From the NCBI GenBank assembly GCA_963711915.1, contig CAVQGA010000022.1:124131-188130 (forward strand): 64,000 nt of DNA, written 5' to 3'. The notes under the pieces are model-generated. The model was not told the DNA's origin. It did no database searches and saw nothing but the letters and a program-made list of their open reading frames with translations. The stretch comes from an uncultured Gemmatimonadales bacterium (lineage in GTDB: Bacteria > Gemmatimonadota > Gemmatimonadetes > Gemmatimonadales > GWC2-71-9). Position 1 is the stretch's first letter. Each line of letters begins with the position of its first letter. This document shows, piece after piece, positions 40,210-63,145 of the stretch. Position numbers and translations under genes: made by a program.

Positions 40210-40220
40210 GGAGCGCGCCC

Positions 40221-43519: not shown

Positions 43520-43545
43520 CCGCCCGGGGCGACGTCGCCGCGCTC

Positions 43546-44579: not shown

Positions 44580-44776
44580 AGGCCGGTGCAGGTGAGGCGT
44601 CGCCCGCCGTCCAACCTCGCCGCCTCCTCCCCCCCTGAACCCGCTGGTGCGGTGCTCCTGGCCCCGGCGCTCAACTTGCCGGACCCGGCGCACTTGAGCC
44701 GTTTGAGTCGGGAGATGCGGTTCCGGTTTCCGGCCTGTGCCCGGGACCTGCAGGCACTCGACGGCCGAGGCCCGGT

Positions 44777-44841
44777 TTCACGGGGCCGGCGGCCGGGATT
44801 CACCATCGATTCACGCTAGGTCATTAGTGTGGCCCCAGTCG
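44777..44841 (+). promoter_or_regulatory. SARP-type promoter of orphan peptide gene
   Basis: Heptamers TTCACGG 44777, TTCACCA 44799, TTCACGC 44810 (15- and 4-nt spacers); 8 nt to -10 TAGTGT 44825-44830; CCCCAGTCG follows. Confidence 0.65.
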
Positions 44842-44870
44842 TTCGGCACCCACCCAGCCAGGAGCACACC

Positions 44871-45029
44871 ATGTCCGACCAGAAGCACGTCCGCCTGGAG
44901 CTGACCGAAGAGCAGAAGGCCCAGGTCAAGGCCGCCACGGGTAAGGATGCCCGGGCGATCGAGCTGAACGCCGAGGAGCTTGAGGAGCGTATCGCGCCGA
45001 TGCTTCCGACGCATCGCGGCGGCCACTAG
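44871..45029 (+). CDS. 52-aa EELEERIAP-motif peptide (orphan precursor-like)
   Basis: AGGAG RBS; MSDQKHVRLELTEEQKAQVKAATGKDARAIELNAEELEERIAPMLPTHRGGH; clear paralog of 52704. Confidence 0.88.
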   Translation: MSDQKHVRLELTEEQKAQVKAATGKDARAIELNAEELEERIAPMLPTHRGGH

Positions 45030-45048
45030 CATCGCTTCCGCAGCTCTT

Positions 45049-45085
45049 GCGCCCCCTCTCGCGGTCGGGCCGCGAGAGGGGGCGC
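45049..45085 (+). terminator. Strong hairpin after the orphan peptide gene
   Basis: GCGCCCCCTCTCGCGG-TCGGG-CCGCGAGAGGGGGCGC perfect 16-bp stem. Confidence 0.75.
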
Positions 45086-45372
45086 TCGATTTCGGCCCCA
45101 GCCTTCGTCCCACTTTCCAGAGAATCGTTCCTCCGCCCGCACAGCGCTTCTCCGCCGGCATCGGCCGCCAGCGACGGCACCGTCTCGGGCGAGCCGCCAA
45201 GATCGCGCGAGCGCCTTAGCCTTGATGCCCACCGCAAAGAAGGCGCGTAGCCGTCGCTCACCGCGTCCGCGTCTCGGAATCAGGACCGACCTCACCCCAG
45301 CCGGCATTGCTCGCGAACGGGTCAGGGGGTGGCGATATTCCGAGATCCTTCGCGCCAAGGATCCCTCGGTCC

Positions 45373-46269
45373 GTGACTCAGCTCCCCGATATCGATGCCG
45401 TCCAGTCCGCCTTCGCCGCGCGCGGGTACGTCGCCGACCGCGATCTCGCGACCGCGGTCTTCCTGTCGCTCGCGCTGAGTCGTCCGCTCCTGCTCGAGGG
45501 CGAGGCGGGCGTGGGCAAGACCGAAGTGGCGCGCACGCTCGCCGGCGCGCTCGGCGCCGAGCTCATCCGGCTGCAGTGCTACGAGGGACTGGACGTCAAT
45601 ACGGCCCTCTACGAGTGGGACTATCCGCGCCAGATGCTCGAGATCCGGCTGCTCGAGGCGCGCGGCGAGGCGAAGTCGGCGGCCACACGAGACATCTTCG
45701 CCGAGGAGTTCCTCATCCGGCGCCCCCTGCTTCAGGCCCTCGAGAGCCGCGCCGCCGAGGCGCCGGTGCTCCTCATCGACGAGGTCGACCGCGCGGACGA
45801 GGAGTTCGAGGCGTTCCTGCTCGAGATCCTCAGTGATTTCGCGGTGACCATCCCCGAGATCGGCACCATCCGTGCCGACCGCCCGCCGCGCGTGATCCTC
45901 ACGAGCAACCGGACGCGCGAAGTGCACGACGCGCTCAAGCGGCGGTGCCTCTACCACTGGATCGACTATCCGACCGCCGCGCGTGAGCTCGCGATCCTGC
46001 ACGCCCGCCTACCCCACGTCCCCGATGCACTCGCCCGCGAGGTCGTGGCCTTCGTGCAGCGCCTCAGGACGGCGGACCTGACCAAGTCGCCCGGCATCGC
46101 GGAGACGCTCGACTGGGCGGCCGCGCTGCTCGCGCTCGGCGCGACCCATCTCGAGGGCGAACAGATCGACCAGACCCTCGGCGTGTTGCTCAAGTATCAG
46201 GAGGATATCGGCGTGTTGCGCGGCGGCGGGGCGAGAACGATGCTGGAGGAGTCGCGAGTCGGGCGATGA
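45373..46269 (+). CDS. coxD: MoxR family AAA+ ATPase (CoxD-like)
   Basis: LEGEAGVGKT, IRLQCYEGLD, LLIDEVDRADEEFEA, HDALKRRC. Confidence 0.88.
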   Translation: MTQLPDIDAVQSAFAARGYVADRDLATAVFLSLALSRPLLLEGEAGVGKTEVARTLAGALGAELIRLQCYEGLDVNTALYEWDYPRQMLEIRLLEARGEAKSAATRDIFAEEFLIRRPLLQALESRAAEAPVLLIDEVDRADEEFEAFLLEILSDFAVTIPEIGTIRADRPPRVILTSNRTREVHDALKRRCLYHWIDYPTAARELAILHARLPHVPDALAREVVAFVQRLRTADLTKSPGIAETLDWAAALLALGATHLEGEQIDQTLGVLLKYQEDIGVLRGGGARTMLEESRVGR

Positions 46270-46280
46270 GGCGCGGGGAG

Positions 46281-46949
46281 TCAGGCCTCCACCACGAGGA
46301 TCTCGAGCCGGGGCCGGCCCTGGAAGTCCCGGTCGGTTCGGCCCAGATACACGTTCGCGAGCGAGGCCGCGCAGGCGTCGGCGCACAGTTGGTCGACGCG
46401 GTGCGTGGTGGCCAGCGCGACCACCGCCATGCCGGCCGCGCGGGCGGCCTGGATCCCCGCCGGGGCGTCCTCGATGACGAGGCAGTCTTCGGGCGCCGCC
46501 GCCAGTGCCTCCGCCGCGAGGAGGTAGGCATCCGGGCTCGGCTTTCCCCGCGCCACGTCCTCGGCGCAGACCAGTACCGGCGGCACCGGCAGGCCGGCGC
46601 GCCGGAGCCGGCTGGTGGCGGCCAGCCGGGTACCCGAGGTGGCCACCGCCCACGCGCCGGCTGGCAGCGTCGCCAGGAGGCGCGCGGAACCGGCCAGCGG
46701 GCCGATGGTCTCGGCGCCCGGCTCGTCGACCGGGTGAAAGGCCCGCACCTCCGCTTCCGCGTCGAGATCGGGCGCCGCCATGCGGATGGTCTCGAGGGCA
46801 CGACGGCCATGGCAGACGCGCAGGAACGGCTCCGGCCGGAGACCTCGGGCACTGGCCCACCGTCGCCACTGCTGTTCGACGTGGGCGGCAGAGTCGACCA
46901 GAACGCCGTCCAGATCGAACAGAACCGCGGAGCATTCGAATCGTTTCAT
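46281..46949 (-). CDS. HAD-IA sugar phosphatase (YfbT-like)
   Basis: [29 protein letters not shown]. Confidence 0.9.
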
Positions 46950-48165
46950 GTCCGCCAATAATGTCGCGCGCGGCTCGATCCCGTTAGATCCGGAACCTCC
47001 CGGGCCGCTCGAGGTCGAGACGCCCTTCGGCCCCGCGCCGGTGGATGGGAACGTGCTGCTGGCGAACGTCGCCCGGTTCGGGCGGCTGCTGCGCCAGGCG
47101 GGCCTCGACGTGGACAGCGGCCAGACCGCGACGTTCGTCCGGGCGCTCATTCTGCTGGGATTCGACCGCCGGCCCGACATCCGAGCGGCCGGCCGGACCA
47201 TCTTCGTCCGGAGGCGGGAGGACGGCCGGTTCTACGAGGCCGCGTTCGACCTCTTCTGGCGCCGCCGGGCCGGAACGAGCGAGCTGAGCAGCCAGCTGCC
47301 CCGCCTGCGGCAGGACGAGCGCAGGGAGCAGCCCGCCGACCCCGCCCGATCCGGAAGCGATACCGCCGAGGCGGAGCTGGTCGCCGCGGTGCGCCCCGGC
47401 GCTGCCAGCCTCCAGGAGGAGCTTCGGACCACCGATTTCGCCCTCCTCACCCCCGACGAGGCGCGCGATGCGGAGGCGATGCTCGAGGCGCTCCGTCCCC
47501 GGCTCCCGCTCAGAGGCGCGCGGCGCGGCCGGCCCGCGCGAAGCGGCCACCGGCCGGCGGCGCGGGCGATGCTCCGGCACGCGATGGGGACCGGTGGCGA
47601 GGCGCTCCGCTGGCGCTGGCTCCGGCGCAGCCTCCGGCCGCGGCCGATCGTGCTGGTCTGCGACATCAGCGGCAGCATGGAGCGGTACAGCCGGTTCATG
47701 CTCCGCTTCGCGCACGCGCTGCAGCGGAGCGGAGCGCCGCTGGAGGTGTTCGTGTTCGGCACCCGGCTCACCCGCATCACGCGCCAGCTCCGGACCCGGA
47801 GCCCGGATGCCGCGATCCGCCGAGTGGCCGAAAAAGTGGTCGACTGGAGCGGCGGCACCCGGATCGGAGAGAGCCTGCACGAGCTCAACCGGCGCTGGGT
47901 CCGCCGGACCGTTCGGAGCAGCGCCGTGGTGTTGCTGGTCTCCGACGGGTGGGAGCGAGGGGACCCCGCGCTCCTCGCACAAGAGATGGCCACGCTGCGC
48001 CGGTCATGCCACCGGCTGGTGTGGATCGACCCGCTCGCCGCCCGGCCCGGTTTCGAGCCGACGACGGTCGGGTTGCGGGCGGCCCTGCCATTCGTGGATG
48101 AGCTCGTGCCGGCCGCGAGCGTCGCCTCGCTCGAGGAACTGGCGGGACGATTGGTTAGGATGTGA
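46948..48165 (+). CDS. coxE: VWA-domain protein CoxE
   Basis: [38 protein letters not shown]; start uncertain (46948 or 47041). Confidence 0.85.
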
Positions 48166-48169
48166 GACT

Positions 48170-48265
48170 CGAGTCATGCTTCGCGCAACCAGGAGGACCT
48201 GCCGGGGGTCGTGGCTCCTTCGCAGAGTCTACCTTGAGCGCAGCGAACGGGCTCAGGATGACTCG
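48170..48265. repeat. REP-like intergenic palindrome (copy 3, degenerate)
   Basis: CGAGTCATG..CAGGATGACTCG with internal TGAGCGCAGCGAA. Confidence 0.6.
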
Positions 48266-48291
48266 CACACACCGATCCGGAGGCCAGACCA

Positions 48292-49328
48292 ATGCGCGAT
48301 ATCCTCTCCGACTACGACCGTCTCACCGCCGAGGGCCGCCCGTTCGGCCGCGCGGTCGTGACCAGCGTGTGGGGGTCCGCCCCCGACCCGAAGGGTCGTC
48401 GATGCTCGCCACCGCCGACGGCGTGATTGCCGGCTCGGTCTCCGGCGGGTGTGTCGAAGCGGCCACCGCCACCGAGATCGGCGAGGCCATCGGGCGCGGC
48501 ACGCCCAAACTGGTGACGTTCGGCGTCACCGACGAGCGCGCGTGGGAGGTGGGGCTCGCCTGCGGCGGGACGATCAAGGTGCTCGTGGAGCCGCGCGTCC
48601 GGCCGGAGGTCCTGCTGGCGGCGCGCGGGCCGGGCGGTGAAGTGGTGGCCACGGTGATCGACGGGCCCGGCGCGGGGGGCGTCGCGCGCGTTTTCGAGGA
48701 CGGGCGCGTGGACGGCGGGCTCGGACCGGAGCTCGAGTCCGCGACAGTGCGGGAGGCCGCCCTGCAGGCGCTCAGGCGTGAGAGCAGCGCGACCGTGGCG
48801 ATCGAGTCCGGCGCTGGGCCGGCGAGCGTCTTCCTCGAGGTGTTCCCTCGACAGCCGAGGCTCGTCATCTTCGGCGGCGTCCACATCGCGGTCGCCCTGG
48901 TGCCGCTCGCTCGGGCCCTGGGCTACCGGACGATCGTCGCCGACGGTCGTCCGGCCTTTCTGACGCGCGATCGTTTTCCGGACGCCGATGAGCTGATTCT
49001 GGGATGGCCCGAGGTGGCCTTCGAGCGGATCGGACTGGATGCGTCCTGCTACGTCTGCATCCTCTCGCACGACCCGAAATTCGACGACCCCGCGCTCCTG
49101 CTCGCCCTTCGCTCGCCCGCGCGCTACATCGGCGCGATCGGCTCGCGGAAGACGCAGGCGGCACGCCGTGACCGGCTCGCGTCATCAGGACTTAATGACG
49201 CGGAGATCGCCCGCGTGCACGGGCCGATCGGGCTGGACCTGGGCGGGCGCCAACCCGCGGAGACCGCCCTGGCCATCCTCGCCGAGATGACCGCGGTACG
49301 CTACGGTGGCGGGGTGGCGCGCCCCTAG
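48292..49328 (+). CDS. XdhC/CoxI family maturation factor, 1-nt frameshift in C-run 48380-48384
   Basis: MRDIL..VVTSVWGSAP joins RPEGSSML..GSVSGGCVE, GLACGG, SHDPKFD, YIGAIGSR, GPIGLDLG if one C is added. Confidence 0.85.
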
Positions 49329-50221
49329 TCGTCGCAGACGGGCGTACCCTCTTCCTCGGGCACGCGCTTCTGGCTCAGCGTGGCCGGCTTCTTCGGCACG
49401 GGCCCGAACCAGACGACGCAGCTCTTGCCGGGCCGGGACGCGTGGGTGGCCATGGCCGACCAGGAGGCGTCGTCCGCGTCCAGGATGGTGATGCCCACAC
49501 CGCGACGCCAGAGAAACTGCAGCGCGAACGGCTCCATCCGGCGGGAGTACACTCCCTGGTTGCCTTTGTAGCTCTCCTGGGCGCGCACCAGATTCCGCAG
49601 ATCCACCCGCATCTGCACATTCGAGGTCACTTCTTCCAACGCGCTGCTGGTATCCGGCGCCGTCGGGGCGGGTGCGGGCTCCTGCGCGACCGGAGCCTGC
49701 GCCGCCGGCGCGGGCCGGGGCGCGCGCTTGTCGTCACACACCGGCACCCCCTCCTTGCCCGTGCGCGCGTACCGGGTCGTCGCCGGCGGCTCGTGCTCCC
49801 GGCCGACGTAGACGACGCAGTCTTCGCTGGTCAGCCCGGGGCGAGTGCCTCGAACCGCCCAGCCGGCGCGCGAGAGCCACAGGAAGCGGACCTGGGTATC
49901 GCCCTGGACATGGAAACCGATCCGGGCGAGGTCCTCGGTGTAGATCCCGTTCTCGGCGTAGTAGTTCTCCTCCGCCACGACGAGCCGGCGGAGCCCCGCG
50001 CGAATCGGATCGAAGCGCGCGGCGTCCGCCGACGCGTCGGGCTTCGCCGGCTTCCTGGGTGCCAGAGCCGGCTTGGGAGGGGCCGGGGCCGGCGGCGGCG
50101 GTGGCGCCGGCGTGGCGGCCACCGACTCGGAGCGGGCCGCTGGGAGGCGAAGACCCTTGCAGTCGGCCGCCAGCAGCAGGACCAGCGAGCCGAGCAGTGG
50201 GATGTGAAATGCGCGATGCAT
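49325..50221 (-). CDS. Putative lipoprotein with two tandem pilin-head-like domains
   Basis: LVLLLAADC lipobox-like; Pro-rich linkers; repeats LRRLVVAEENYY..C..PVCDD and LRNLVRAQESYK..C..PVCDD. Confidence 0.6.
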   Translation of the reverse strand: MHRAFHIPLLGSLVLLLAADCKGLRLPAARSESVAATPAPPPPPAPAPPKPALAPRKPAKPDASADAARFDPIRAGLRRLVVAEENYYAENGIYTEDLARIGFHVQGDTQVRFLWLSRAGWAVRGTRPGLTSEDCVVYVGREHEPPATTRYARTGKEGVPVCDDKRAPRPAPAAQAPVAQEPAPAPTAPDTSSALEEVTSNVQMRVDLRNLVRAQESYKGNQGVYSRRMEPFALQFLWRRGVGITILDADDASWSAMATHASRPGKSCVVWFGPVPKKPATLSQKRVPEEEGTPVCDD

Positions 50222-50306
50222 GCGAGCCTCCGGCGCTCCGTCGACCAACTGGAATGAAATCCTATTGCGCGGCGATCGGCCGCGCCACTCAGGCGACATT
50301 CGCCCG

Positions 50307-52559
50307 CTATCGCCGCACTCGCAGATCGAGATCCTCGCCGACGATTTCCCGCGTGATCGGGAGCGAGCGGGAGGGGCGCGGCTGCTCGCTCCATCCGGCG
50401 TTCTCCAGCACGTCCGCGGTGAGATGATCCACCGCCTCCGCCTGCTCGGCGGTGCGCGCCGAGGAGGCGGCCAGATCGAGCCAGCCGAGCGCCTCGGTGT
50501 AGGCATAGCGCGCCGTCGCGCCCTCGGCAGCCAAGCGGGCGTAGCGGTACGCCAGCTCGCGCTCGCCGCCGCGGTCGGCGTGGCGGGCGAGCTCCCCCGC
50601 GACCGTCGGCGACCCGTCCTGCCCGAAGACCAGCTCCAGCGCGAGCGCCAGCGACCGGTGCACCTCGGTCCGGCGCGAGGCCGTCAGCCCATCACGCACC
50701 ATGTGCGCGATGACCGGGTGGACGCAGCGATAGGCCCCCGCCTCCTCCGCCACCAGATGCCGGTCCACGAGCGCGTCGCCGATGGCCGCGGCGTGCAGGC
50801 GGGAGATGCCGTGCACGTGGGAGAGGACCTCCGGGCGGCAGCCCCCGCCGCTCACGGCGATCGTGATCAGCACGTCCCGCAGTTCGCCTGGGAGCCGGTC
50901 CACCCGCTCGGCGATCACGTCCTGTACCGTCTGAGACACCAGGACCTCGTGGGATGCCCCCTGCTCAACCGGCGCCACGGTCCATTCCCCGGTCTGGGCC
51001 TCCATCGCCAGCAGCCCCTGGGCGAACATCGTCTTGAGCAGCTCGATGACGTAGAACGGGTTCCCGCCCGTGATCCGGAAGAGCCGGGCGGCGAACCGCC
51101 GGCCACCCGTCGGGGTGCTCACGTGCCCCATCTCGCGGACCAGTTGCCACACTTCGTCCTCGGACAGCGCGCTGAGTGAGACCACGTCGGCGTGGGCCTT
51201 GGCGCGGAGCACCCGGCAGAGCCGGGACGCGGGAGCATCACGCTCGACCTCGCCCAGCGTCAGCAGCCCCAGCCAGAGGACCGGCGAGCGCTCGAGCCGC
51301 CGGGTGATGAACCGGATCAGGTTGCAGCTGTCGTCGTCGCACCACTGGAAGTCGTCGATCACGACGGCCACCGGCCGCTCGGCCGAGATCGCCGCGAGCA
51401 CCTGCGCGCACCCCTCGAACAGCCGCCACCCCTCGCCCGGTCCCGTGTCGGCCGTGCCGGCCAGCGCGGGGAAGCGGTCGCGCAGCTCCGGAACGAGCCG
51501 GGCCACTTCCACGAGCCACTCGGCCGAGGTGCCGGCCAGCCCCGGCGCGTCGAGCGCGCTTCGGAGGACTTCGACAACCGGCTCGTACGGAAGCCCCGCC
51601 TGCCGGTCGTAGCTCCGGCCCCGGAGCACCGTTCCACCCTCGGCCACGACCCAACGCTGGAACTCGTCCGCCAGACGGGACTTCCCCACCCCCGATTCGC
51701 CCTCCACCAGGAGAATTCGGCCCTGCCCCCGGAACACACCCTTCCAGGCCGCGGCCAGCGCCTTCCACTGGGCATCGCGCCCGATGAGGCTGGCCTCGAA
51801 CGAGGGGGCATGGGCGTACCACTCGTCGGTGACCGGCCGGGACTCGGATGTCGCGTGGTCGGCCTCGACCCGCCGGACCAGCGCCTGCAGCGCCCGGCTC
51901 GGCTCGCAGCCGGTCTCGCGGGCCACCAGGCTCCGGAACTCGGCATACCGAGCAAGGGCGGCGGTGCGGTTCCCCGAGAGGTAGCGCGCCTCGACGGCGA
52001 GCTGGGCCGCTTCGTCGGACACGGGATCGCTCGCCAGCCAGCGATCCGCCAGCTCGACCGCATCGCGCCAGCGCCACTGCCCCATCGCCTCCCGTGCCAG
52101 GCGAGCGAGCGCCTGCTGGTACTGACCCAGCAGGCTCGTTCTGGTGGCCGCGACCCATTCGTCGAACTGCGGCGCCCGGCGGATCGAGAATCCCTCGAGG
52201 AACCGGGGCACGTCGAAGGCGACGGCGCGAGTGGGATCGCTCTCGAGCGCCGAACGGAACTCGACGACGTCGGACCCGAGGGGTGGCGCGAGCTCGATCA
52301 GCGACCGGTCCGCGTGGATCGTCTCGCCCAGCACCTCTCGGAGGTGCTTGAGCGCCTGCCGGAGCGACGCCCGCGCCTCGGCCTCGGGCGACTCGCCCCA
52401 GAGCAGCCCGGCCAGTGCTTCCCGGCTGTGCAGCCGCCGCTCGAGCGTCAGGAAGGCTAAGAGCGCCATGGGCTTGGCCCCAAGGGCGGGCACAACCGGC
52501 GCGCCCCCGGGCGTGGTCAGGAGCGGCGTTCCGAACAGGTGCAGCGTGTGTGTGGACAC
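50307..52559 (-). CDS. SARP-like transcriptional activator: wHTH plus BTAD plus AAA ATPase
   Basis: LHLFGTP..ALLAFL..SREALAGLLW..ARASLRQAL; FLEGF..FDEWV; TGCEPS; GESGVGKS, VIDDFQW, TGGNPFY. Confidence 0.9.
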   Translation of the reverse strand: MSTHTLHLFGTPLLTTPGGAPVVPALGAKPMALLAFLTLERRLHSREALAGLLWGESPEAEARASLRQALKHLREVLGETIHADRSLIELAPPLGSDVVEFRSALESDPTRAVAFDVPRFLEGFSIRRAPQFDEWVAATRTSLLGQYQQALARLAREAMGQWRWRDAVELADRWLASDPVSDEAAQLAVEARYLSGNRTAALARYAEFRSLVARETGCEPSRALQALVRRVEADHATSESRPVTDEWYAHAPSFEASLIGRDAQWKALAAAWKGVFRGQGRILLVEGESGVGKSRLADEFQRWVVAEGGTVLRGRSYDRQAGLPYEPVVEVLRSALDAPGLAGTSAEWLVEVARLVPELRDRFPALAGTADTGPGEGWRLFEGCAQVLAAISAERPVAVVIDDFQWCDDDSCNLIRFITRRLERSPVLWLGLLTLGEVERDAPASRLCRVLRAKAHADVVSLSALSEDEVWQLVREMGHVSTPTGGRRFAARLFRITGGNPFYVIELLKTMFAQGLLAMEAQTGEWTVAPVEQGASHEVLVSQTVQDVIAERVDRLPGELRDVLITIAVSGGGCRPEVLSHVHGISRLHAAAIGDALVDRHLVAEEAGAYRCVHPVIAHMVRDGLTASRRTEVHRSLALALELVFGQDGSPTVAGELARHADRGGERELAYRYARLAAEGATARYAYTEALGWLDLAASSARTAEQAEAVDHLTADVLENAGWSEQPRPSRSLPITREIVGEDLDLRVRR

Positions 52560-52599
52560 GGACGATCCCGAGGATGTACACCGAAGAACGTACCGGCGA

Positions 52600-52664
52600 T
52601 TTACGGAAGGGCAATAGGCAATCACGGTCTTTTCACGGAGACCTCATAGGTTGTCCCCCAGTCG
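52600..52664 (+). promoter_or_regulatory. SARP-type promoter of the peptide/export operon
   Basis: Heptamers TTTACGG 52600, ATCACGG 52621, TTCACGG 52632 (14- and 4-nt spacers); 8 nt to -10 TAGGTT 52647-52652; CCCCAGTCG follows. Confidence 0.65.
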
Positions 52665-52703
52665 GTGACGGTGATGGACCGCAGGCCACCCCAGGAGAGC
52701 CCC

Positions 52704-52874
52704 ATGTCAAACGCCAAAGATCAGATCCGGATCGAGCTGACCCCCGAACAGAAGGCCAGCATTCGCAGCACCACGGGCAAGGACGCCGAGGCGGTGGAGC
52801 TCTCGGTGGAGGAGCTCGAGGCCCGCATCGCTCCGACCAAGGTGCTCCACCCGATCCCGAAGAACCTGGGCTAA
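52704..52874 (+). CDS. 56-aa EELEARIAP-motif peptide (precursor-like)
   Basis: AGGAG RBS; MSNAKDQIRIELTPEQKASIRSTTGKDAEAVELSVEELEARIAPTKVLHPIPKNLG. Confidence 0.88.
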   Translation: MSNAKDQIRIELTPEQKASIRSTTGKDAEAVELSVEELEARIAPTKVLHPIPKNLG

Positions 52875-52916
52875 TCCGATTTCCCCATCTCGACCTTCAC
52901 TGAAACGGGAGCTATC

Positions 52917-53045
52917 ATGAGCAAGCACGACGAGCAGACCCGGACCCCCGAACAGCAGCCGAAGAAGCCCGTTCCGTCCAAGGACGTCGAGCTGGGCGTC
53001 GAAGAGCTCGAAGAGAAAATCGCTCCGATGAAGAAGTTCATCTAA
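52917..53045 (+). CDS. 42-aa EELEEKIAP-motif peptide (precursor-like; absent from ORF track)
   Basis: GGGAG RBS; MSKHDEQTRTPEQQPKKPVPSKDVELGVEELEEKIAPMKKFI. Confidence 0.85.
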   Translation: MSKHDEQTRTPEQQPKKPVPSKDVELGVEELEEKIAPMKKFI

Positions 53046-53060
53046 GCGACTCCCTCTTCG

Positions 53061-53122
53061 CGGTGCCCGCAGCGGGGCACCGGTCCGGGCTCCGGCTCTC
53101 CGTGTGGGAGGGCCGGAGCCCG
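53061..53122 (+). terminator. Tandem stem-loops between peptide genes and export genes
   Basis: CGGTGCCC..GGGCACCG and CGGGCTCCGGCTCTCC-GTGTG-GGAGGGCCGGAGCCCG; no U-tract. Confidence 0.6.
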
Positions 53123-53150
53123 TTGTCCACTCAGTCCATCATCCTGACAA

Positions 53151-55079
53151 ATGAGCGCTCCAGCGACGTCCACCGACGAGCTGCGTGAGGAAGTCGAGCG
53201 GCTGCGCCTGCTCCAGTCCATCAGCTTGGAGCTGGGCGCGTCGCTCGACTTCGACGAGCTGCTGCCCAAGGTCTTCCATCGGGTGCTCACCGCGCTGGGC
53301 GCGGAGGGCGGCTCGATCTGGATCACCGAGGGCGACGTGCTGCGCTGCCGGATCGCCCTGGGCGGACGGGGCGACCGGCTGGTCGGCGCCGAGGTTCCGG
53401 TGGGAACCGGGTTCGTGGGCGACGTCGCCCAGCATCAGAAGACCACCATGGTTACGCGCGCGGTCGAAGACCCGCGCTTCGACCCGGAGCTCGACCGCTC
53501 CAGCCAGACGATCGCGCTCAACGTGATGGCCACGGCGATGGTGACCGGCGGCGTCACGGTCGGCGCGATCCAGGTGACCAACAAGACCACCGGCAACGGT
53601 GTCTTCGACGACCGCGACCGCGACCTGCTCGAGGGCGTGGCCGCCTTCGCCGCCATCGCGCTCCGGAATGCCCAGCTGCACGCCGCCGAGAAGCGCGCCG
53701 GCGATCTGGCCCTCCTGCTCGACATCAGCCGCGAGATCACCGCGACGCTCGATCTCGACCGGGTGCTGCAGTCGGTCGTGAACCTGGCCTCGCGCGCGCT
53801 CCCATTCGACCGGGCCGCGGTGGCGCTCTACGAGAAAGGGCGCTGCGACATCCGGGCGGTGGCGGGCGAGGAGACGGTGGATCCCAAGGATCCCAAGCTG
53901 CAGGACCTGGTGGCGCGGGCCGAGTGGGCGGCGGGCCGGGGCGAGCCGCTCTATCTGGTGGAGCGCGTGGCGCCGGGCTCCGATGCCGAGCGAATGTTCG
54001 TGACCATTTTCGGCCAGGACCTCCAGACCGACACGGTCGAAAGCGGTCTCTATCTCCCGCTCAAGGACGAGGAGGGGGTGCTGGGCGTCCTGGTGTTCGA
54101 GTCGGCCACCGCGGACTTCGCCACGCCGACCCAGCGCGAGGTGGCCGCGATCCTGGCCAATCAGACCGCCGTGGCGCTCCGGAACGCGCAGCTCTACCAC
54201 CAGGTGCCGATGGTGGACGCGCTCGGGGCCCTGGCCGCGAAGCAGCAGGCGCTCCGTGCCATCCCCCGGCGGCGGCTCCGGATCTACGCCGCCATCGTCG
54301 CGCTGGCGGTCGCCGAGCTGGTCCTGGTGAGGTGGCCGCTCCGGGTCGCCGGGGAGAACGCCGTGTTTCGCGCGGGCGGCTACAGTCCGGTGCGGGCGAT
54401 CGTCGCCGGCGTGGTCGAGCGGATTCCGGTGCTCGAGGGCGGCGCCGTCGCGCGCGGAGCGCCGGTGGCGTACCTCCGCGCCACGTCGCTCCGGGCCGAC
54501 CGGGAGGCGACCGCCGCCGAGGCCGCCTCCGCCGACCGCCTGGCGTCGCTGGCCGCGAGCCGGGGGGACCCGTCCGAGGAACGGCTGCACCGGATCCGTG
54601 CCGACGCGCTCCGGCGCGAGACCGCGCTGCTCGACGAGGAGCTGGAGCTCACGACCCTCCGGGCGCCGGTGGGCGGCATCGTGCTGACGCCCCACGTCCA
54701 GGACCGGGTCGGCAGCTCGCTCGAGGAGGGCGACCTGCTGCTCACGGTCGGACGGATGGATTCGCTGGAGCTCGAGTTCGGCGTGGCGCAACGAGACATC
54801 GGCCGCGTGCGCCCGGGCCAGGAGATCCGGCTCCGGGTGGATGCCGCGCCGCAGCGCACGTTCACCGGGCGCGTGCGCAGCGTGGCCCCGCTTCCGGCCG
54901 ACAGCGGAAGCGATGTGATGTATCCGGTCCGCGCGGTCGTCGCCAACCCCGACGGCCTGCTCAAGCCGAGCATGGCGGCCTATGTCCGCGTGCTCACCGA
55001 TCCCGCCTCCGCGGCCACCCGGCTCCTCCGCGGGCCGGCCCGCTGGGCCCGTCTCCTCTGGTGGAGGATCTGGTCGTGA
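53151..55079 (+). CDS. GAF-GAF-TM-HlyD-type membrane fusion protein
   Basis: Two GAF domains (GTGFVGDV..DPRF; AAIALRNAQL, AVALRNAQL), TM, lipoyl-hairpin LRAPVGGIV, LLKPSM. Confidence 0.85.
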   Translation: MSAPATSTDELREEVERLRLLQSISLELGASLDFDELLPKVFHRVLTALGAEGGSIWITEGDVLRCRIALGGRGDRLVGAEVPVGTGFVGDVAQHQKTTMVTRAVEDPRFDPELDRSSQTIALNVMATAMVTGGVTVGAIQVTNKTTGNGVFDDRDRDLLEGVAAFAAIALRNAQLHAAEKRAGDLALLLDISREITATLDLDRVLQSVVNLASRALPFDRAAVALYEKGRCDIRAVAGEETVDPKDPKLQDLVARAEWAAGRGEPLYLVERVAPGSDAERMFVTIFGQDLQTDTVESGLYLPLKDEEGVLGVLVFESATADFATPTQREVAAILANQTAVALRNAQLYHQVPMVDALGALAAKQQALRAIPRRRLRIYAAIVALAVAELVLVRWPLRVAGENAVFRAGGYSPVRAIVAGVVERIPVLEGGAVARGAPVAYLRATSLRADREATAAEAASADRLASLAASRGDPSEERLHRIRADALRRETALLDEELELTTLRAPVGGIVLTPHVQDRVGSSLEEGDLLLTVGRMDSLELEFGVAQRDIGRVRPGQEIRLRVDAAPQRTFTGRVRSVAPLPADSGSDVMYPVRAVVANPDGLLKPSMAAYVRVLTDPASAATRLLRGPARWARLLWWRIWS

Positions 55080-56047
55080 CCCGCCCCGCCATCGCGCTGG
55101 CACTCCTGCTCGCCGCCTGCGGCGGCGACGCGCCGCGCCCGATCGAGACCGCCGCGACGCTGGCCTCCACCCCGGCCGGCGCGATCGCGACGGCCGAGAG
55201 CGTCACGGTGGACCGCCCGCTCTCGCTGCCCTCGCAGCTCTACGTGGAGCACGACGCGGCGGTCCTGGCCCGCTCCGGCGGCGTGGTCGAGGCCATCCTC
55301 GCCGACATCGGCACGCCGGTGGCGGCGGGCCAGGCGCTCGCGCGACTCGAAAGCACCGACCAGGAGATCGCGCTGGCACAGGCGCGGGAGCAAGCGTCCA
55401 ACGCCAAGCAGCGGGTCGAGCGCCAGCGCGCGCTCACGACCGCGGGCGTGGTGACGCGCGCCGATTCGGAGCAGGTGGAGTTCGAGAACCGGGCGGCGGA
55501 GCTCGCGCTCAGGAAGGCCCAGCGGGACTACGACCTCACCCGTATCGTGGCCCCGTTCGCCGGAGTGGTGACCGCGCGGATGGCGCGGGTGCAGCGGATG
55601 GTGCGGGACGGCGATTCGCTGTTCCGCGTCACCGCGCTGGCCCCGGTGCTGGCCACCGTGCGGGTGCCGGAATCGGCCGCGACGGGACTTCGGGTCGGGG
55701 CCAAGGCGCGGGTGCTGGGCGCGGGCGGCCGGAGCGCGGAGGGGCGCGTCATCCGCGCGTCGCCCGTGCTCGACGCGGCCAGCGGCACCCGCGAGGTGGT
55801 CGTCCAGCTCGCCCCCGGCGCCGGCGTCACCCCCGGCTCGAGCGTGACCGTGCAGCTCGGCGCCGAGCGGCACAGTGTGGTCGCGATCCCGCGGGCGGCG
55901 GTCGCCAAGGATGGCTACGCGCTCGTCTGGGACGACAACCGGACTACGCTCCGCCCCGTCACCCTCGGCGCCGACCTCGACGGCGGCCGGGTGGAGGTCG
56001 TGGCCGGGATCGCCGCCGGCGAAAAGGTCGTGCGGGCCGCCCCGTGA
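55076..56047 (+). CDS. RND-type periplasmic adaptor (MFP) lipoprotein
   Basis: LLLAAC lipobox, IVAPFAGVV, SPVLDAASGT, VEVVAGIAAGEKVV; GTGA overlap. Confidence 0.88.
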   Translation: MTRPAIALALLLAACGGDAPRPIETAATLASTPAGAIATAESVTVDRPLSLPSQLYVEHDAAVLARSGGVVEAILADIGTPVAAGQALARLESTDQEIALAQAREQASNAKQRVERQRALTTAGVVTRADSEQVEFENRAAELALRKAQRDYDLTRIVAPFAGVVTARMARVQRMVRDGDSLFRVTALAPVLATVRVPESAATGLRVGAKARVLGAGGRSAEGRVIRASPVLDAASGTREVVVQLAPGAGVTPGSSVTVQLGAERHSVVAIPRAAVAKDGYALVWDDNRTTLRPVTLGADLDGGRVEVVAGIAAGEKVVRAAP

Positions 56048-58092
56048 ACGGCGCGCCCCGGCTCCGCGCCGACCTGACGATCGTCGAGCAGACCTACCGC
56101 GGCGAACAGAGCTTCATCGTCAAGGACCCCAAGACCCGGAAGTATTTCCGGTTCCGGCCGGTCGAGGTCAGCGTGCTGCGCGCGTTCGACGGCAGCCGCG
56201 GCGCGGCCGACGTGGCCGCGGCGCTCGCGGCCGAGGGCTTCCGGCTGACCGCCGGCGCGATCGAGGGGTTCGCCGGAAAGCTCAAGACGATGGGGTTGCT
56301 CGAGCGTACCGTGGGCGAGCGCTCGGTGCTCATGATGGAGCGGCTCCGCGCGCAGCGACGCCAGCGCCTCGGCACGGCCTACCAGGGCGACATCTTCCGC
56401 ATGCGCTGGTCGATGGGCGACCCCGATCGCTTCATGGATCGCACGATCCCGTACATCCGGTGGATGTTCACGCGCGGCTTTCTGGTCGCCTCGGTGTTCC
56501 TGTTCGCCATCTACCTGCTGGTCATCGCCCTCAAGTGGCCCGAATTCACCACCGCGTTCGGCAACCTGTATCACTTCCGGTTCTCGGCGTGGGAGATGTT
56601 CGTCCTCTGGTCCACGGCCACGGGGATCATCGTCATCCATGAGCTGGGGCACGGATACACGTGCAAGTACTTCGGCGGCCAGGTGCACGAGATCGGCGCG
56701 ATGCTGCTGTACTTCGAGCCGGCGTTCTTCTGCAACGTCAACGATGCCTGGACCTTTCCCGAGCTCAAGGCGCGGCTCTGGGTCACGGCGGCCGGGTCGT
56801 GGATCCAGCTCGTCGCCGCCAGCCTCGCGGCCATCGTCTGGTGGGCTGCCGCGCCCGGCACGCTGCTCTCCCTGATCGCCCTCAGCGCCGTGCTGGTCGG
56901 CGGGGCCACGACGATCGCCATGAATGCCAACCCGCTCATCCCGCTTGACGGGTACTTCGCGCTCAGCGACTACCTCGAGGTACCGAACCTGCGGCAGCGC
57001 GCCTTCAAGCACCTGACCTGGGTGGTGAAGAGCAAGGTCTTCCGGCTCGACGTTCCGCAGCCTCCGGCGGACGAGCGGGAGCAGCGCATCTTTCTCATCT
57101 ACGGCCTGCTGTCGGCGTGGTACATCACGTCGATCATGCTCGTCGTGGCCGGCAGCGTCTACGGCTGGCTCGACCGCGCCCTCGGCCTGGCCGGCGGCGT
57201 TCTGTTCGCGCTCGGCGTGTGGCTGATGGCACGGGGCGCTGTCCGGACGTGGGTGGGCACCGCCGCCACGGCCTGGCGCGAGCTCCGGGCCCGGGCGGCG
57301 ACCCGGCGACTCCGCGACCGGCTGCTCCTGGCCGCGGCGCTGGTGATCGTGGCCGGCGCGCTCATCCCGCGGCCGATCACGGTGGTCGGCCGGTTCGCCG
57401 TGGCCCCGGCGTTCTCGGTACCGCTCACCGCCCCCGACAGCGGCGTGGTGTCGCAGGTGCTCGTCCGCGGAGGCACACGCGTCGAGGCCGGAATGCCGCT
57501 CGTGGTGGTCCGCGACCTCGACCTCGAGCGCGCCGCCCTCGCCACGGGGCGCACGGTGGATTCGCTCGAGGCGCGGGCGGCGCGGGCCCGCGCGGCGGGC
57601 CGGAATGACGAGGTCGCCAGCCTCGAGGCCGAGCGCGCCACGGCCCAGGCCCGGCTCGACGGCATGGTGGTGGAGCAGCGCGCGCTGACCGTGCGCGCCC
57701 TGGTCCCGGGCATCGTGACCACGCTCCGCCCCGAGGAGATGACCGGCCACTGGGTGAGCCTGGGCGAGCGGCTGCTCGAGCTGGGCCAGCCCGACTCGCT
57801 GGAGATCCGCATCGCACTGACCGACGCCGGCGCCACCCAGGTACGGCCGGGCCAGCCCGCCCGGCTGGTGTTTCATTCGGACGGAGGGACCCTCGCGGCC
57901 CGCGTGAGCGGAGTGGCGCCGGCGTCGGCGCTGGCGTCGGGCGCGGTCGAGGCGCGGGTGGGCATCCACGCCTCGGGGCGCTGGCGCCCCGGCATGACGG
58001 GGGAGGCCAGTGTGACGCTCCGCCGGTCGAATCTGTGGGGTGCCGTGTGGTGGGGCATCCGGCAGCGAGTGCGGACGGACATTCTCTTGTAA
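56044..58092 (+). CDS. PqqD/RRE-like N-domain plus M50 (site-2) metalloprotease plus HlyD fusion (YydH/EpeP-like)
   Basis: PRLRADL..IVKDPKTRKYFRF..FDG; HELGH zinc motif; NANPLIPLDGY; C-terminal adaptor RPGMTG. Confidence 0.85.
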   Translation: MNGAPRLRADLTIVEQTYRGEQSFIVKDPKTRKYFRFRPVEVSVLRAFDGSRGAADVAAALAAEGFRLTAGAIEGFAGKLKTMGLLERTVGERSVLMMERLRAQRRQRLGTAYQGDIFRMRWSMGDPDRFMDRTIPYIRWMFTRGFLVASVFLFAIYLLVIALKWPEFTTAFGNLYHFRFSAWEMFVLWSTATGIIVIHELGHGYTCKYFGGQVHEIGAMLLYFEPAFFCNVNDAWTFPELKARLWVTAAGSWIQLVAASLAAIVWWAAAPGTLLSLIALSAVLVGGATTIAMNANPLIPLDGYFALSDYLEVPNLRQRAFKHLTWVVKSKVFRLDVPQPPADEREQRIFLIYGLLSAWYITSIMLVVAGSVYGWLDRALGLAGGVLFALGVWLMARGAVRTWVGTAATAWRELRARAATRRLRDRLLLAAALVIVAGALIPRPITVVGRFAVAPAFSVPLTAPDSGVVSQVLVRGGTRVEAGMPLVVVRDLDLERAALATGRTVDSLEARAARARAAGRNDEVASLEAERATAQARLDGMVVEQRALTVRALVPGIVTTLRPEEMTGHWVSLGERLLELGQPDSLEIRIALTDAGATQVRPGQPARLVFHSDGGTLAARVSGVAPASALASGAVEARVGIHASGRWRPGMTGEASVTLRRSNLWGAVWWGIRQRVRTDILL

Positions 58093-58410: not shown

Positions 58411-59241
58411 ATGCTGGCCCTCGTCCGCCAGGCGTTCGAGGGGCGATATGAGGTCGAGCGAGAGATCGGGAAGGGTGGCAACGCCCGGATCTTTCTGGCG
58501 CGCGAGCCGGGAGGCCAGCCTGTCGCGCTCAAGATCCTGCACCCCGAACTGCTCGTCAGCGTGGCCGCGGATCGCTTCCTGCGTGAGATCAAGCTCGCCT
58601 CACAGCTCGACCATCCCCACATCGCGCATCTGCTGGACTCCGGCGAGCGGGACTGGCTGGTGTACTACGTCATGACCTACGTCGAAGGCGCCACGCTGCG
58701 CGAGTTCCTGTCGCAGCGCGGGCGGCTCTCGGTGGCCGATACTCTCCGGGTGGCCGACAACCTGCTCGACGCGCTCGAGCATGCGCACACTCACGGGATC
58801 ATCCATCGCGACGTCAAGCCCGAAAACGTCGTCGTCTCGCCGCGCGGGGCCGTGCTGCTCGACTTCGGCATCGCCCGCGCGGTGTGGGCGTCGGGCAGCG
58901 ACCGGCTCACCCGCTCGGGCATCGCGGTGGGCACGTCGACCTACATGAGCCCAGAGCAGATCACCGCGCTGCAGGAGATCGACCTTCGGAGCGACCTGTA
59001 TTCGCTCGCCTGCGTCCTGTACGAGTGCCTGGCGGGCCAGCCGCCGTTCGTCCACAAGAACGAGGCGGTCGTGCTGCAGCTCCATCTCACCCAGCCGGCG
59101 CCCGATGTCCGCACCATCCGGCCGGAGATTCCGGCCGAGCTGGCCGCGGGGATCGGCCGGGCCCTGGCCAAGACGCCGGAGGAGCGCTGGCAGACGGCGG
59201 CGGCGATGCGCGACGCGCTGGCCGCGGTGATGGTCGGGTAG
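58411..59241 (+). CDS. Stand-alone Ser/Thr protein kinase
   Basis: IGKGGNARIF, VALK, HRDVKPEN, DFG, YMSPE. Confidence 0.92.
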   Translation: MLALVRQAFEGRYEVEREIGKGGNARIFLAREPGGQPVALKILHPELLVSVAADRFLREIKLASQLDHPHIAHLLDSGERDWLVYYVMTYVEGATLREFLSQRGRLSVADTLRVADNLLDALEHAHTHGIIHRDVKPENVVVSPRGAVLLDFGIARAVWASGSDRLTRSGIAVGTSTYMSPEQITALQEIDLRSDLYSLACVLYECLAGQPPFVHKNEAVVLQLHLTQPAPDVRTIRPEIPAELAAGIGRALAKTPEERWQTAAAMRDALAAVMVG

Positions 59242-62119: not shown

Positions 62120-63145
62120 ATGCGCCATCTCCTACTTGCAGCCCTTTCGGGGGCTCTCATACTGTCGGCATGCAGTGATCAGTCGCCGCAACCCCCCACC
62201 GGTCCCCAGGCCGGCGGCCTGCCGACGTTCGACAAGGGCGTGGCCTGCGGCACGCCGGTGTTTCCACTTGGCGATGCCAACACCCTGGTCAAGCTCGTCT
62301 ACCCGAACGGGAGTCCGGAGAACAACGCCCTCGCCAAGGTCTTCGACATCAGCAAGAGGTGGTCGCAGTGCAAGCTGGCGGATCCGCGTGCCAAGGTCGT
62401 GGACTTCGTCAAGACCCTGTATGGGGACTGGAAAGCGGGGCGGCTGACCGCGCAGGCGACGGCCCAGACGGTGGGCGACCTGATCAATCTCATGTACTCG
62501 GGGGTCGGTCTCGCGGCCGGCGATTTCGGATTCGGTCTCTTCACCGGACCAGAGCTTCGGGTCCGGGGTGACAACAACAAGGTCAGCACAGTGATCCCGG
62601 CGAACGGATTTCCCGAGCCCACCCTGGTGTCGATCACCCGGCTGCCGGACACTCCGCAGCTCGTCACGAACGGACAGGACCAGTTCCCGCCGTTCTACGA
62701 CATCACCGTCACTAACGCCTCCGGCACCCACAACCTGGCCAGCGGCGTCGGGATCGTGGGCTTCTGCGTCACGGATGCGGTGCTGGCCCAGATTGCCGCC
62801 AACGATGGTGATCCGCAGATCGGTCACAATCCCACCGACGGCGGCTTCGAGGTTCTGGATGCCGCCGACGCCACCGAGTACGCAAACCTCGGTTTGTCCT
62901 GCACCATTCAGGCGAATGCCGGACCGATCATCACCGACCTGTTCCACGGCGGCACCCTCGGGGACCTTGCGCTCGGCACCTGGAATGCGGCCAGCCAGTC
63001 AGTGGCCTCGGCGGCCCAGGCGATCTTCCTGCCCCAGCCGCTCCAGGCCGCGACGCTCGCGGATCTTACCAAGGGGGTGGGCGGCCGGACGACGAAATAC
63101 AGCCCGTTCGGCGTGGTGGACGCCAATTCAGGCTCCTCCGAGTAA
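62120..63145 (+). CDS. Hypothetical lipoprotein
   Basis: GGAGG RBS; MRHLLLAALSGALILSAC lipobox. Confidence 0.75.
   Translation: MRHLLLAALSGALILSACSDQSPQPPTGPQAGGLPTFDKGVACGTPVFPLGDANTLVKLVYPNGSPENNALAKVFDISKRWSQCKLADPRAKVVDFVKTLYGDWKAGRLTAQATAQTVGDLINLMYSGVGLAAGDFGFGLFTGPELRVRGDNNKVSTVIPANGFPEPTLVSITRLPDTPQLVTNGQDQFPPFYDITVTNASGTHNLASGVGIVGFCVTDAVLAQIAANDGDPQIGHNPTDGGFEVLDAADATEYANLGLSCTIQANAGPIITDLFHGGTLGDLALGTWNAASQSVASAAQAIFLPQPLQAATLADLTKGVGGRTTKYSPFGVVDANSGSSE

Follow-up and report, generated by a model that had tools for sequence, protein, structure and literature searches.

Leader peptides with short basic tails linked to an RRE-M50-HlyD protease operon in Gemmatimonadota: a candidate daptide-related system without tailoring enzymes

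In the genome of an uncultured Gemmatimonadales bacterium, two small tandem genes, whose products share a conserved leader end and then part into short, different, basic tails, lie ahead of an operon for an M50 intramembrane protease and periplasmic adaptor domains, and the question that this locus raises is what becomes of the tails. The window analysed here (~70% G+C) is a stretch of 64,000 nucleotides (contig C22, positions 124131-188130) from a 4.49-Mb genome with a completeness of 99.6%, and every label among the relatives of the window is Gemmatimonadota, a phylum that is abundant in soil and rarely cultured. The initial annotation had described the peptides, a coupled operon and a divergent regulator, and this overall observation was confirmed, with Pfam and NCBIfam models supporting the domains. 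Our preferred interpretation, which we hold with moderate confidence, is that the locus encodes a relative of the daptide systems that has no tailoring enzymes, and that the tails would be cleaved off and exported unmodified.

Three peptide genes, A, B and C, are present in the window (Table 1). That A and B are tandem genes of 56 and 42 codons, with a common leader end and different basic tails, was confirmed by translation and by a motif scan; a six-frame reading of the window shows the leader motif in exactly three places, the third being in peptide C, 8 kb upstream of the pair. The end common to the three leaders is EELE[AE][RK]IAP, and the short basic tails that follow it are all different. 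Across the 4.49 Mb of the genome A, B and C are the only real matches, the fourth (E 0.29) lying inside a 707-aa frame, and all 17 loci that were aligned have an unchanged CAGGAG ribosome-binding site ahead of peptide A. Searching a protein collection returned 367 small proteins at E <= 0.01, of which those listed are 49-70 aa long with 68-94% leader identity; the named members are called hypothetical or DUF1192, the latter label going back to a sub-threshold likeness of an LSVEELEARIA stretch (E 0.07). An alignment of 25 members shows no variation at R9, T13, E15, Q16, K26, E32, E37-L38-E39 and I42-A43-P44; their tails are unalignable. Our set of relatives consists of 80 Gemmatimonadota loci fetched by way of the peptide, many of which end at contig ends, and 165 peptide genes were counted in them, with leaders ending ELE[EADS][RK][IV][AS]P (ELEERIAP in 116 of the 165). 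Leaders of type A are 44 aa long and read ...IRIELTPEQK..IR..TGKDAEAVELSVEELE.RIAP; those of type B have a fast-changing front rich in Pro, Lys and Gln, then ...VEL.VEELEE[KR]IAP; and those of type C are A-like and adjoin cox genes, copies of the peptide C type being found beside such genes in, for example, L005, L007, L008, L011-L013, L016, L036, L063 and L070.

The 165 tails are, for a genome of 70% GC, short at 3-15 aa (median 7), unique in 156 cases and net positive in 143, and are high in Lys, Gly, Pro and Arg (Lys makes up 12% of their residues, Asp and Glu together 2%, Cys 0.2%). A loose pattern, [MAGS]-[KR]-hydrophobic-x-P, runs through them: P1' is Met, Ala, Gly or Ser in 123/165, P2' is Lys or Arg in 87/165, P3' is hydrophobic in 130/165 and P5' is Pro in 49/128, type B tails being mostly M-K/R followed by one to three residues. 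No residue is common to all the tails, the shortest of which has three residues. Some are conserved within a subclade, as with GMAYRPWQGLD, GTLFPGGKGEA and RLASNHNETLLV, and locus L062 carries the third of these several times in tandem. That locus holds five tandem peptide genes at 4104-5100, four of them with near-identical tails R/KLA.NH.ETLLV, and a run of N partly masks one copy. Separately, in L089 (~1126, minus strand; genome G112) and L090 (~8815, minus strand; G176) a type-A-like leader ends in EELEMKLAP and continues into a Cys-bearing tail of 19 aa that is near-identical in both; no M50-HlyD gene stands within the fetched stretch, and this peptide may be a precursor for another maturation system.

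Codons were compared in 247 non-independent pairs of peptide genes, selected for leader identity (at least 36 of 40 residues shared), with the tails compared ungapped. Among 9880 leader codons, 2331 (24%) differed synonymously only and 646 changed a residue; among 464 codons of equal-length tails the corresponding figures were 30 and 255, and tail length differed in 165 pairs. Identical leaders that are one to three synonymous changes apart can bear different tails, such as MKLA and MKYV, or AKLFNNK and SKTFLGK. By these counts the leaders are under strong purifying selection, which argues that the peptide genes are translated, and the tail sequences seem to change at roughly the neutral rate, with length, charge and the first positions held. 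Positive or diversifying selection on the tails was considered and rejected, given a rate close to neutral, pairs that are not independent and an ungapped comparison.

These numbers bear directly on the main rival of our interpretation, in which the 44-aa acidic leader is the working product, a small cytoplasmic regulator that may bind the SARP protein or the GAF domains encoded in the locus, and the basic, hydrophobic tail merely keeps it at the membrane or marks it until the RRE-M50 protease cuts it off as a switch by regulated proteolysis, with no export. We consider this rather improbable. It would account for a leader that is better conserved than any enzyme of the locus (in L014 leader identity is 70%, vs 52-59% for the operon proteins) and for near-neutral tails that hold only composition, length and the loose P1'-P5' pattern, and basic tails would suit binding to the inner leaflet. 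Moreover, a separate family of small proteins of ~70 aa, seen in L093-L098 (G095, G262, G238, G278, G084, G038) in genomes that lack RRE-M50-HlyD, has the type A leader's N-terminal half (...LRIVLTPEQREMVRRMSGQNIDAIEL...) followed by a conserved GGGP.KF.WRLS...GIPRQ; it has no Pfam or NCBIfam match. What speaks against a leader that acts by itself comes from the comparison of peptides and proteases across the phylum, and from the adaptors.

As traced by tblastn in the 80 loci, the gene order is a SARP-type regulator on the opposite strand, the peptides, GAF-HlyD, HlyD, M50-HlyD and often a kinase, an order that persists down to 40-50% protein identity, including in a Longimicrobiales record. 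At least one of SARP, GAF-HlyD and M50-HlyD is present in 74 of the 80 loci and the three operon genes stand together in 55; L009, L032, L041, L047, L075 and the cox-linked L070 hold none. Wherever a GAF-HlyD start was found with room upstream, peptide genes lay within 1.5 kb of it in 66 of 67 loci (two genes in 52, three in 9, one in 5). The same tie appeared in an even sample of 401 Gemmatimonadota genomes from 147 genera, for which no statistic is given since relatives are not independent: counting peptide matches as strong at E < 1e-10 and protease matches at E <= 1e-20, 47 genomes have both, 4 a strong peptide only, 7 the protease only and 343 neither (46, 4, 6 and 343 when G057, with both, and G182, with protease only, are left out). 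The peptide profile matched in 66 genomes, strongly in 51 and weakly, over the N-terminal half alone, in 15, the weak matches arising because the ~70-aa family shares that half; the protease matched in 54. The association of peptide homologues with M50/HlyD loci, on which the initial annotation had staked its proposal, is thus borne out.

The exceptions are instructive in their turn. One peptide-only case, G170, stops at a contig end, and when the protease-only genomes apart from G268, G182 and G128 were looked into, three of the seven (L085, L087 and L088) proved to carry a divergent RRE-M50-HlyD gene, of 33-40% identity, preceded by other small genes. Their products have minimal leaders of 17-20 residues, ending ...EELEQRIAP, ...LEKLEQRIAP and ...LEQLEPRVAP, and C-terminal parts, 27-50 aa in length, that abound in Gly, Ser, Asn and Thr or in His. 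The initial annotation had likened the motif to LEPR-XLL export signals, and this found no support: NCBIfam models gave no match for the L087 and L088 peptides at E <= 10, and the literature that holds the term is unrelated. The C-terminal parts in these three loci look like cargo, which favours the same reading for the tails in the window; this weighs against a leader effector, as does the fact that type B leaders and those of L085, L087 and L088 retain only the ...ELE.RIAP end, their other residues being few or fast-changing.

The same survey bears on a second alternative, that the peptides are tied to the operon merely by inherited gene order and that the operon acts on some other substrate. 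Distant homologues of the module do lack recognisable peptides of this kind, and synteny inside one phylum is non-independent evidence. Nevertheless, the two are distributed patchily and yet in step over the 147 genera, 26 of which have the peptide and 24 the protease, the leader motif is in register with the substrates of a homologous protease, and divergent proteases accompany divergent peptides with the same leader end, so that we regard inherited order as a very improbable explanation.

The homologous protease is that of the daptides. NF041824, the profile for the intramembrane metalloprotease of daptides, aligns through positions 2-377 of its 379 with residues 6-408 of the M50 protein (E 5.7e-60, 203 bits). 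In the M50 protein HELGH lies at 199-203 and an NPLIPLDGY segment at 296-304 (LDG at 301-303), the H, E and H of the former and the D-G-Y of the latter being invariant across 32 distant homologues; against the Pfam model PF02163 the score is 23.2 bits, under the cut-off of 27.2. Counting segments, a crude estimate, gives ~7 hydrophobic ones, which would make the N-terminal domain cytoplasmic and the HlyD domain periplasmic. For this N-terminal domain the initial annotation had suggested a RiPP recognition element (RRE; RiPP, a peptide made on the ribosome and modified after translation). Pfam PqqD did not reach E 0.01 on the protein, and the RRE fold is confirmed at the level of a structural model: in a model of residues 1-140, built on a 37-sequence alignment, strands 12-18, 21-28 and 33-37 are followed by helices 39-47, 54-63 and 70-83, with pLDDT 85-91 over residues 11-90, and the best PDB matches by Foldseek are 5v1u, 6jx3, 5v1v, 5why and 5wgg (probability 1.0, target TM-score 0.67-0.75), that is, TbiB1 and a lasso B1 protein with leader bound, then the RRE of the sactisynthase CteB. 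Co-folding of the RRE domain (residues 1-135) with peptide A, on alignments of 37 and 25 rows respectively, gave a score of 0.03 and a mark of 0.32, which speaks neither for nor against binding.

According to the daptide paper, what led to that class was a site-2 protease with an RRE fused to its N-terminus, and daptide precursors carry the leader motif ELExMEAP, with Pro at -1, the leader being removed by the RRE-dependent peptidase MpaP. Aligned in register, the published motif and the window peptides share E-8, L-7, E-6, A-2 and P-1, five of eight positions, and we place the cut directly after Pro chiefly because the registers match. The initial annotation had put the cleavage near IAP, and the homology to an RRE-fused site-2 protease acting on ELExMEAP leaders now lends that proposal support. 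If our general interpretation is right, RRE-guided cleavage after IAP is likely, and a signalling role much less so. The likeness extends to the tandem arrangement of the precursor genes (DapA/MpaA, with leader ends ELExxxAP and Pro at -1) and to the fusion of an N-terminal RRE with a site-2-type M50 protease (DapP/MpaP), homologous to ours across RRE and M50. That the product in the homologous system is the C-terminal part, as stated there, is a further point against a leader effector.

There are also differences from daptides. The invariant C-terminal Thr of daptides, which their chemistry needs, has a counterpart in only 3 of the 165 tails, the window's own tails ending in G, I and H; the aliphatic-rich stretch described for daptides is replaced by basic tails of 3-15 aa; one daptide cluster encodes the transporters TfDapT1T2, whereas the protease here has a C-terminal HlyD domain and two adaptor partners; and the host belongs to Gemmatimonadota, whereas the profile models named in the daptide paper were built for Actinomycetota and Bacillota. 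Nor were DapB, DapC and the dedicated aminotransferase/methyltransferase found by model searches of the genome. That no modifying enzyme lies nearby, as the initial annotation had it, holds for 36-64 kb, the part of the window covered by our Pfam and domain scans, in which neither a transporter nor a tailoring domain (radical-SAM, YcaO, LanB or other) was detected, and the models for DapB, DapC and LanB/PEARL match nothing in the genome. DapB (DUF-RRE, NF041823) has no genome match, nor did any control genome give one, which leaves this search unvalidated; DapC (dehydrogenase, NF041822) has none in this 99.6%-complete genome; PF04738, the LanB/PEARL model, gives zero matches here and zero in the control genomes; and the best match to the aminotransferase model NF041821 scores 222 bits against a cut-off of 450, on another contig, all 14 control genomes giving such generic matches.

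It could still be argued that the tails are true RiPP cores with tailoring genes at another site in the genome, and the argument has some basis: every RRE-dependent protease known so far in the literature covered belongs with a modified peptide (daptide, pearlin or epipeptide), some subfamily tails, such as GMAYRPWQGLD, are conserved, and a Cys-bearing tail of 19 aa does exist, with no protease nearby. Set against this are the lack of any residue common to all tails, the rarity of Cys (0.2%), tails as short as three residues, a gene order held across an order of bacteria with no enzyme gene within it, and the failure of the DapB, DapC and LanB models to match the genome, and we consider true RiPP cores quite unlikely.

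The pearlins, which the initial annotation had brought in through the acidic leader motif, offer a parallel in the protease step. In the TglA and TglG system an M50 protease, predicted to contain an RRE, trims a very short C-terminal piece off a conserved ~50-aa peptide, and according to a review the M50 enzymes TglG and TmoG can remove a single C-terminal residue from the scaffold peptide. In contrast, the tail here is gene-encoded, where in pearlins it is added from aminoacyl-tRNA; the TglA recognition motif is reported as F[N/D]LD, against ELExxIAP here; and the PEARL/LanB-type enzyme was not found by PF04738, a model that left the control genomes without a match as well. As to the leaders, the genome search with NF033737 (Amm_Lyn_leader, cut-off 30 bits) found none, peptides A and C do not match it and peptide B does so weakly, at 12.8 bits (E 0.1), so that of the suggested likeness a faint trace in peptide B stands and membership by the model's own cut-off does not. 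Epipeptides (YydF/EpeX, with YydH/EpeP) also have an M50 intramembrane protease, and the M50 protein matches NF058609 weakly (7e-10), although with 38.9 bits against a cut-off of 225; no radical-SAM domain occurs in the genes scanned, and we have not seen RRE or HlyD domains described for YydH/EpeP-type enzymes in the portions of the literature at hand. One review states that EpeP is thought to both cleave and export a short peptide.

The question of how a tail would leave a cell with two membranes brings us to the rest of the operon. The initial annotation of a translationally coupled GAF-GAF-HlyD, RND adaptor and M50-HlyD operon was upheld by Pfam and NCBIfam matches and by the gene junctions, both of which are GTGA overlaps; we can add that the middle adaptor carries a lipoprotein signal, LLAAC. 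Three HlyD/RND_mfp-type adaptor domains, one on a lipoprotein and two membrane-anchored, are thus reminiscent of tripartite efflux and type I secretion, with the difference that an intramembrane protease stands in the place of the pump and that one adaptor bears two cytoplasmic GAF domains; the review literature on adaptors, as far as it was accessible, does not mention a protease-adaptor fusion. In the mechanism that we propose, the cytoplasmic RRE would bind the ELExxIAP end of the leader and the M50 active site would make its cut immediately past the Pro, in the way that the daptide peptidase cuts past ELExMEAP, two steps for which homology argues strongly. The freed tail of 3-15 residues may then exit through the three adaptor domains and a TolC-like channel encoded elsewhere, and the cytoplasmic GAF domains may gate this envelope-spanning assembly, both steps resting on domain content; ~10 TolC-like genes are found elsewhere in the genome. 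The three periplasmic adaptor domains would be hard to explain without a path through the envelope, another difficulty for the leader effector, for which the finding of no transporter in the locus by domain scans is conversely a point in favour.

The three-gene module itself reaches far beyond these peptides. Among representative proteins, matches to the full-length M50 protein number 12404 when the threshold is E <= 1e-3, and still 6891 with E <= 1e-10 and 3061 with E <= 1e-30; of the 150 best, the majority have a length of 680-820 aa and an alignment that begins at residue ~4. A protein atlas shows clusters of look-alikes that combine M50, PqqD and adaptor domains; their few labelled members come from Pseudomonadota, Acidobacteriota and Planctomycetota, and we take them as leads only. 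In a distant set of 80 metagenome loci, retrieved with an alignment of remote M50-HlyD members, the order GAF-HlyD, HlyD, M50-HlyD is kept at 25-37% identity, with a GAF-HlyD match in 76 (extending to the GAF part in 49) and a match to the middle adaptor in 68. Outside the four loci with peptides, a motif scan, clustering of 1262 small open reading frames and reading by eye upstream of GAF-HlyD in 32 loci turned up no small gene that is conserved, a weak negative given that the small-frame clusters are mostly off-frame noise. An order kept so far out, with peptides in four loci, suggests that the module is old and widespread and that these peptides are the substrates of one clade.

Several observations have to be set against the export of unmodified tails. 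The ELEERIAP peptides occur in only 4 of the 80 distant metagenome loci, those with a SARP gene. The score against NF041824, ~203 bits, lies below the model's cut-off of 300 bits. Near-neutral change, with nearly every genome bearing a tail of its own, fits weak constraint equally well as signalling, and the 44-aa leader of types A and C exceeds what an RRE needs for recognition and is better conserved than the enzymes. Finally, no ABC, RND or MFS pump was found at 36-64 kb or among the conserved neighbours of 160 related loci, which leaves the energy source of export unexplained, and short cationic peptides are, by the positive-inside rule, poorly suited to crossing the inner membrane unaided.

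With regard to expression, the divergent BTAD-AAA activator of the initial annotation was recovered as a SARP-type regulator with Trans_reg_C, BTAD and AAA_16 matches (AAA_16 1.4e-28; BTAD 3.3e-10, 41 bits, above its cut-off; Trans_reg_C 4e-4, 20.8 bits against a cut-off of 26.2), which probably starts at GTG 52559 and not at 52625. A homologue of at least 100 bits is present in 70 of the 80 loci, on the opposite strand and upstream of the peptide genes. SARPs bind phased direct repeats beside a -10 element. The 144 nt between GTG 52559 and peptide A contain T[TC]ACGG-like repeats in a 10-11-nt phase, with TAGGTT 9 nt past the last TCACG, and in 17 aligned loci the element blocks are conserved and the bases next to them vary. 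Upstream of peptide C the layout and the spacings match those of peptide A (Table 1), from which we infer that A and C are co-regulated. OmpR-type winged helix-turn-helix, BTAD and direct repeats beside a -10-like TAnnnT, the features expected of SARP control by the operator-position rule, are all found here, and the sequences suggest that the divergent regulator binds the phased repeats and drives all three peptide genes; in our mechanism the SARP-STAND protein would activate the peptide promoters, that of peptide C included, through repeats in an 11-nt phase.

The transcripts themselves appear to be structured. The hairpin after peptide C looks like a terminator. The hairpins that separate the peptide genes from the operon gave no T-run terminator call, and their candidate roles are those of an attenuator or a transcript stabiliser; the spacer between the last peptide gene and the operon has z < -2 in 49 of 63 loci, and such recurrent hairpins would fit precursor transcripts that outnumber those of the processing genes. 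In a soil-metagenome contig (run X1, record 3) 115 other letters replace the hairpin spacer, equivalent to 53033-53151 of the window. In one related contig of low depth (X3, record 21; from soil, plant and rhizosphere runs) the listed differences and indels crowd in tails and spacers, and it was not used as evidence.

Table 1. Positions of the peptide genes, operon and regulatory elements in the window, and of minimal-leader peptides in three other loci
Feature	Position	Strand	Description
Peptide A	52704-52874	+	56 aa; 44-aa leader ends EELEARIAP; tail TKVLHPIPKNLG
Peptide B	52917-53045	+	42 aa; Pro/Lys/Gln-rich leader ends EELEEKIAP; tail MKKFI
Peptide C	44871-45029	+	52 aa; leader ends EELEERIAP; tail MLPTHRGGH; AGGAG ribosome-binding site upstream
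GAF-GAF-TM-HlyD	53151-55079	+	642 aa; predicted two cytoplasmic GAF domains, one transmembrane (TM) helix 375-400, periplasmic adaptor domain
Lipoprotein periplasmic adaptor (RND_mfp)	55076-56047	+	323 aa; lipobox LLAAC; TIGR01730 2e-43, 148.6 bits, cut-off 94.9
RRE-M50-HlyD	56044-58092	+	682 aa; predicted RRE ~5-90, site-2-protease-type membrane domain, periplasmic HlyD ~455-682
Ser/Thr protein kinase	58411-59241	+	276 aa, kinase domain alone; Pkinase 8e-46
SARP-type regulator	50307-52559	-	OmpR-type winged helix-turn-helix, BTAD, AAA_16/STAND ATPase; open frame on to 52625
Peptide A promoter/operator (putative)	52591-52664	+	repeats TACCGG, TTACGG, TCACGG, TCACGG at 52591, 52601, 52622, 52633; -10-like TAGGTT 52647-52652; CCCCAGTCG
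Peptide C promoter (putative)	44776-44841	+	TTCACG-type direct repeats 44776-44783, 44798-44804, 44809-44815; -10-like TAGTGT 44825-44830; CCCCAGTCG 44833-44841
Hairpin after peptide C	45049-45085	+	17 bp, GC-rich, then TCGATTTCGG; 81-nt stretch folds at -46.5 kcal/mol
Two hairpins, 7 bp and 17 bp	53062-53128	+	between peptide genes and operon; -61.8 kcal/mol, z -5.25, 0/200 shuffles as stable
Minimal-leader peptides	L085 9534-10069; L087 9574-9786; L088 9027-9161	-	directly upstream of divergent RRE-M50-HlyD; three tandem copies in L085

Outside the cell the tails may act as strain-specific signals, and this is the weakest step of our proposal. The short, unmodified, secreted peptide pheromones of Gram-positive bacteria that are matured by the M50 protease Eep would be comparable in their protease and product; in contrast, they show no relation to our precursors in sequence, and our system would work in a two-membrane host, through an RRE and recognition of a leader motif. 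A receptor that covaries with the tail was sought by comparing L012 and L013, which have the same leaders and other tails and diverge sharply only at residues 81-140 of the first GAF domain; this site was rejected, the divergence being largely a 28-aa deletion in L013 and the family-wide value there being 0.46 vs a mean of 0.63. A first GAF domain lacking ~28 residues around 81-140 is present both in L013 (8445-10286) and in L023 (2206-4038), L013 being otherwise 93-98% identical to L012. A bolder version of the export idea can be envisioned, in which the locus encodes a new envelope-spanning secretion machine, with the protease as the pump, leader binding and cleavage by themselves releasing the unmodified cationic tail into a GAF-gated duct of adaptors and TolC, the tails as quorum signals that feed back through the SARP-STAND protein, and the same machine in thousands of homologous loci of other phyla; we think it unlikely.

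Two Ser/Thr kinases stand downstream of the operon. The one at 58411-59241 has a homologue of at least 250 bits in 38 of the 80 loci and is often better conserved than the operon proteins (95% vs 77-84% in L001), and whether it belongs to the peptide system is uncertain. Peptide C sits between cox-like molybdenum-hydroxylase genes (39999-43519) and accessory genes of the CoxD, CoxE and XdhC type (45307-49328); the whole cox-like cluster, 39999-49328, encodes a molybdopterin-binding large subunit and an FAD subunit, then MoxR-type AAA, VWA/CoxE and XdhC proteins, and peptide C, which has a promoter and a hairpin to itself, occupies this place between structural and accessory genes in several further loci too. 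Three further open frames, of 231, 271 and 341 aa (46266-46961, 49442-50257 and 62120-63145), have no Pfam match at E <= 1.

Returning to the export of unmodified tails by a daptide-related system, how much of this is new? The initial annotation had called the system undescribed, and that has to be qualified, in that daptides already provide both the type of protease and the motif of the leader, with the HlyD fusion, the extra adaptors, the lack of tailoring genes and the tails of 3-15 aa remaining as new. Our literature search, which did not cover the supplementary RRE-family lists of the daptide paper, found no description of the three-gene module or of a Gemmatimonadota peptide system. As far as our searches tell, the new features are thus a tailoring-free branch, tails of 3-15 residues, a protease-adaptor fusion with two further adaptors and no pump, a SARP-controlled peptide regulon, and the host phylum.

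The boundary between leader and tail is defined to the residue in a large and clean family, and both the motif and the protease are homologous to those of the experimentally studied daptides. If the tails are released unmodified, they would be among the shortest gene-encoded products that depend on a leader, and a case of RRE-guided proteolysis without tailoring chemistry. A periplasmic adaptor fused to a protease, together with two more adaptors and no pump, poses a question for the field of tripartite transport, and a function established here would annotate a large uncharacterised family of 3061 representative clusters (E <= 1e-30). Should the locus encode an envelope-spanning secretion machine after all, with the tails as feedback signals, it would mean that a form of peptide quorum sensing is native to a two-membrane soil phylum.

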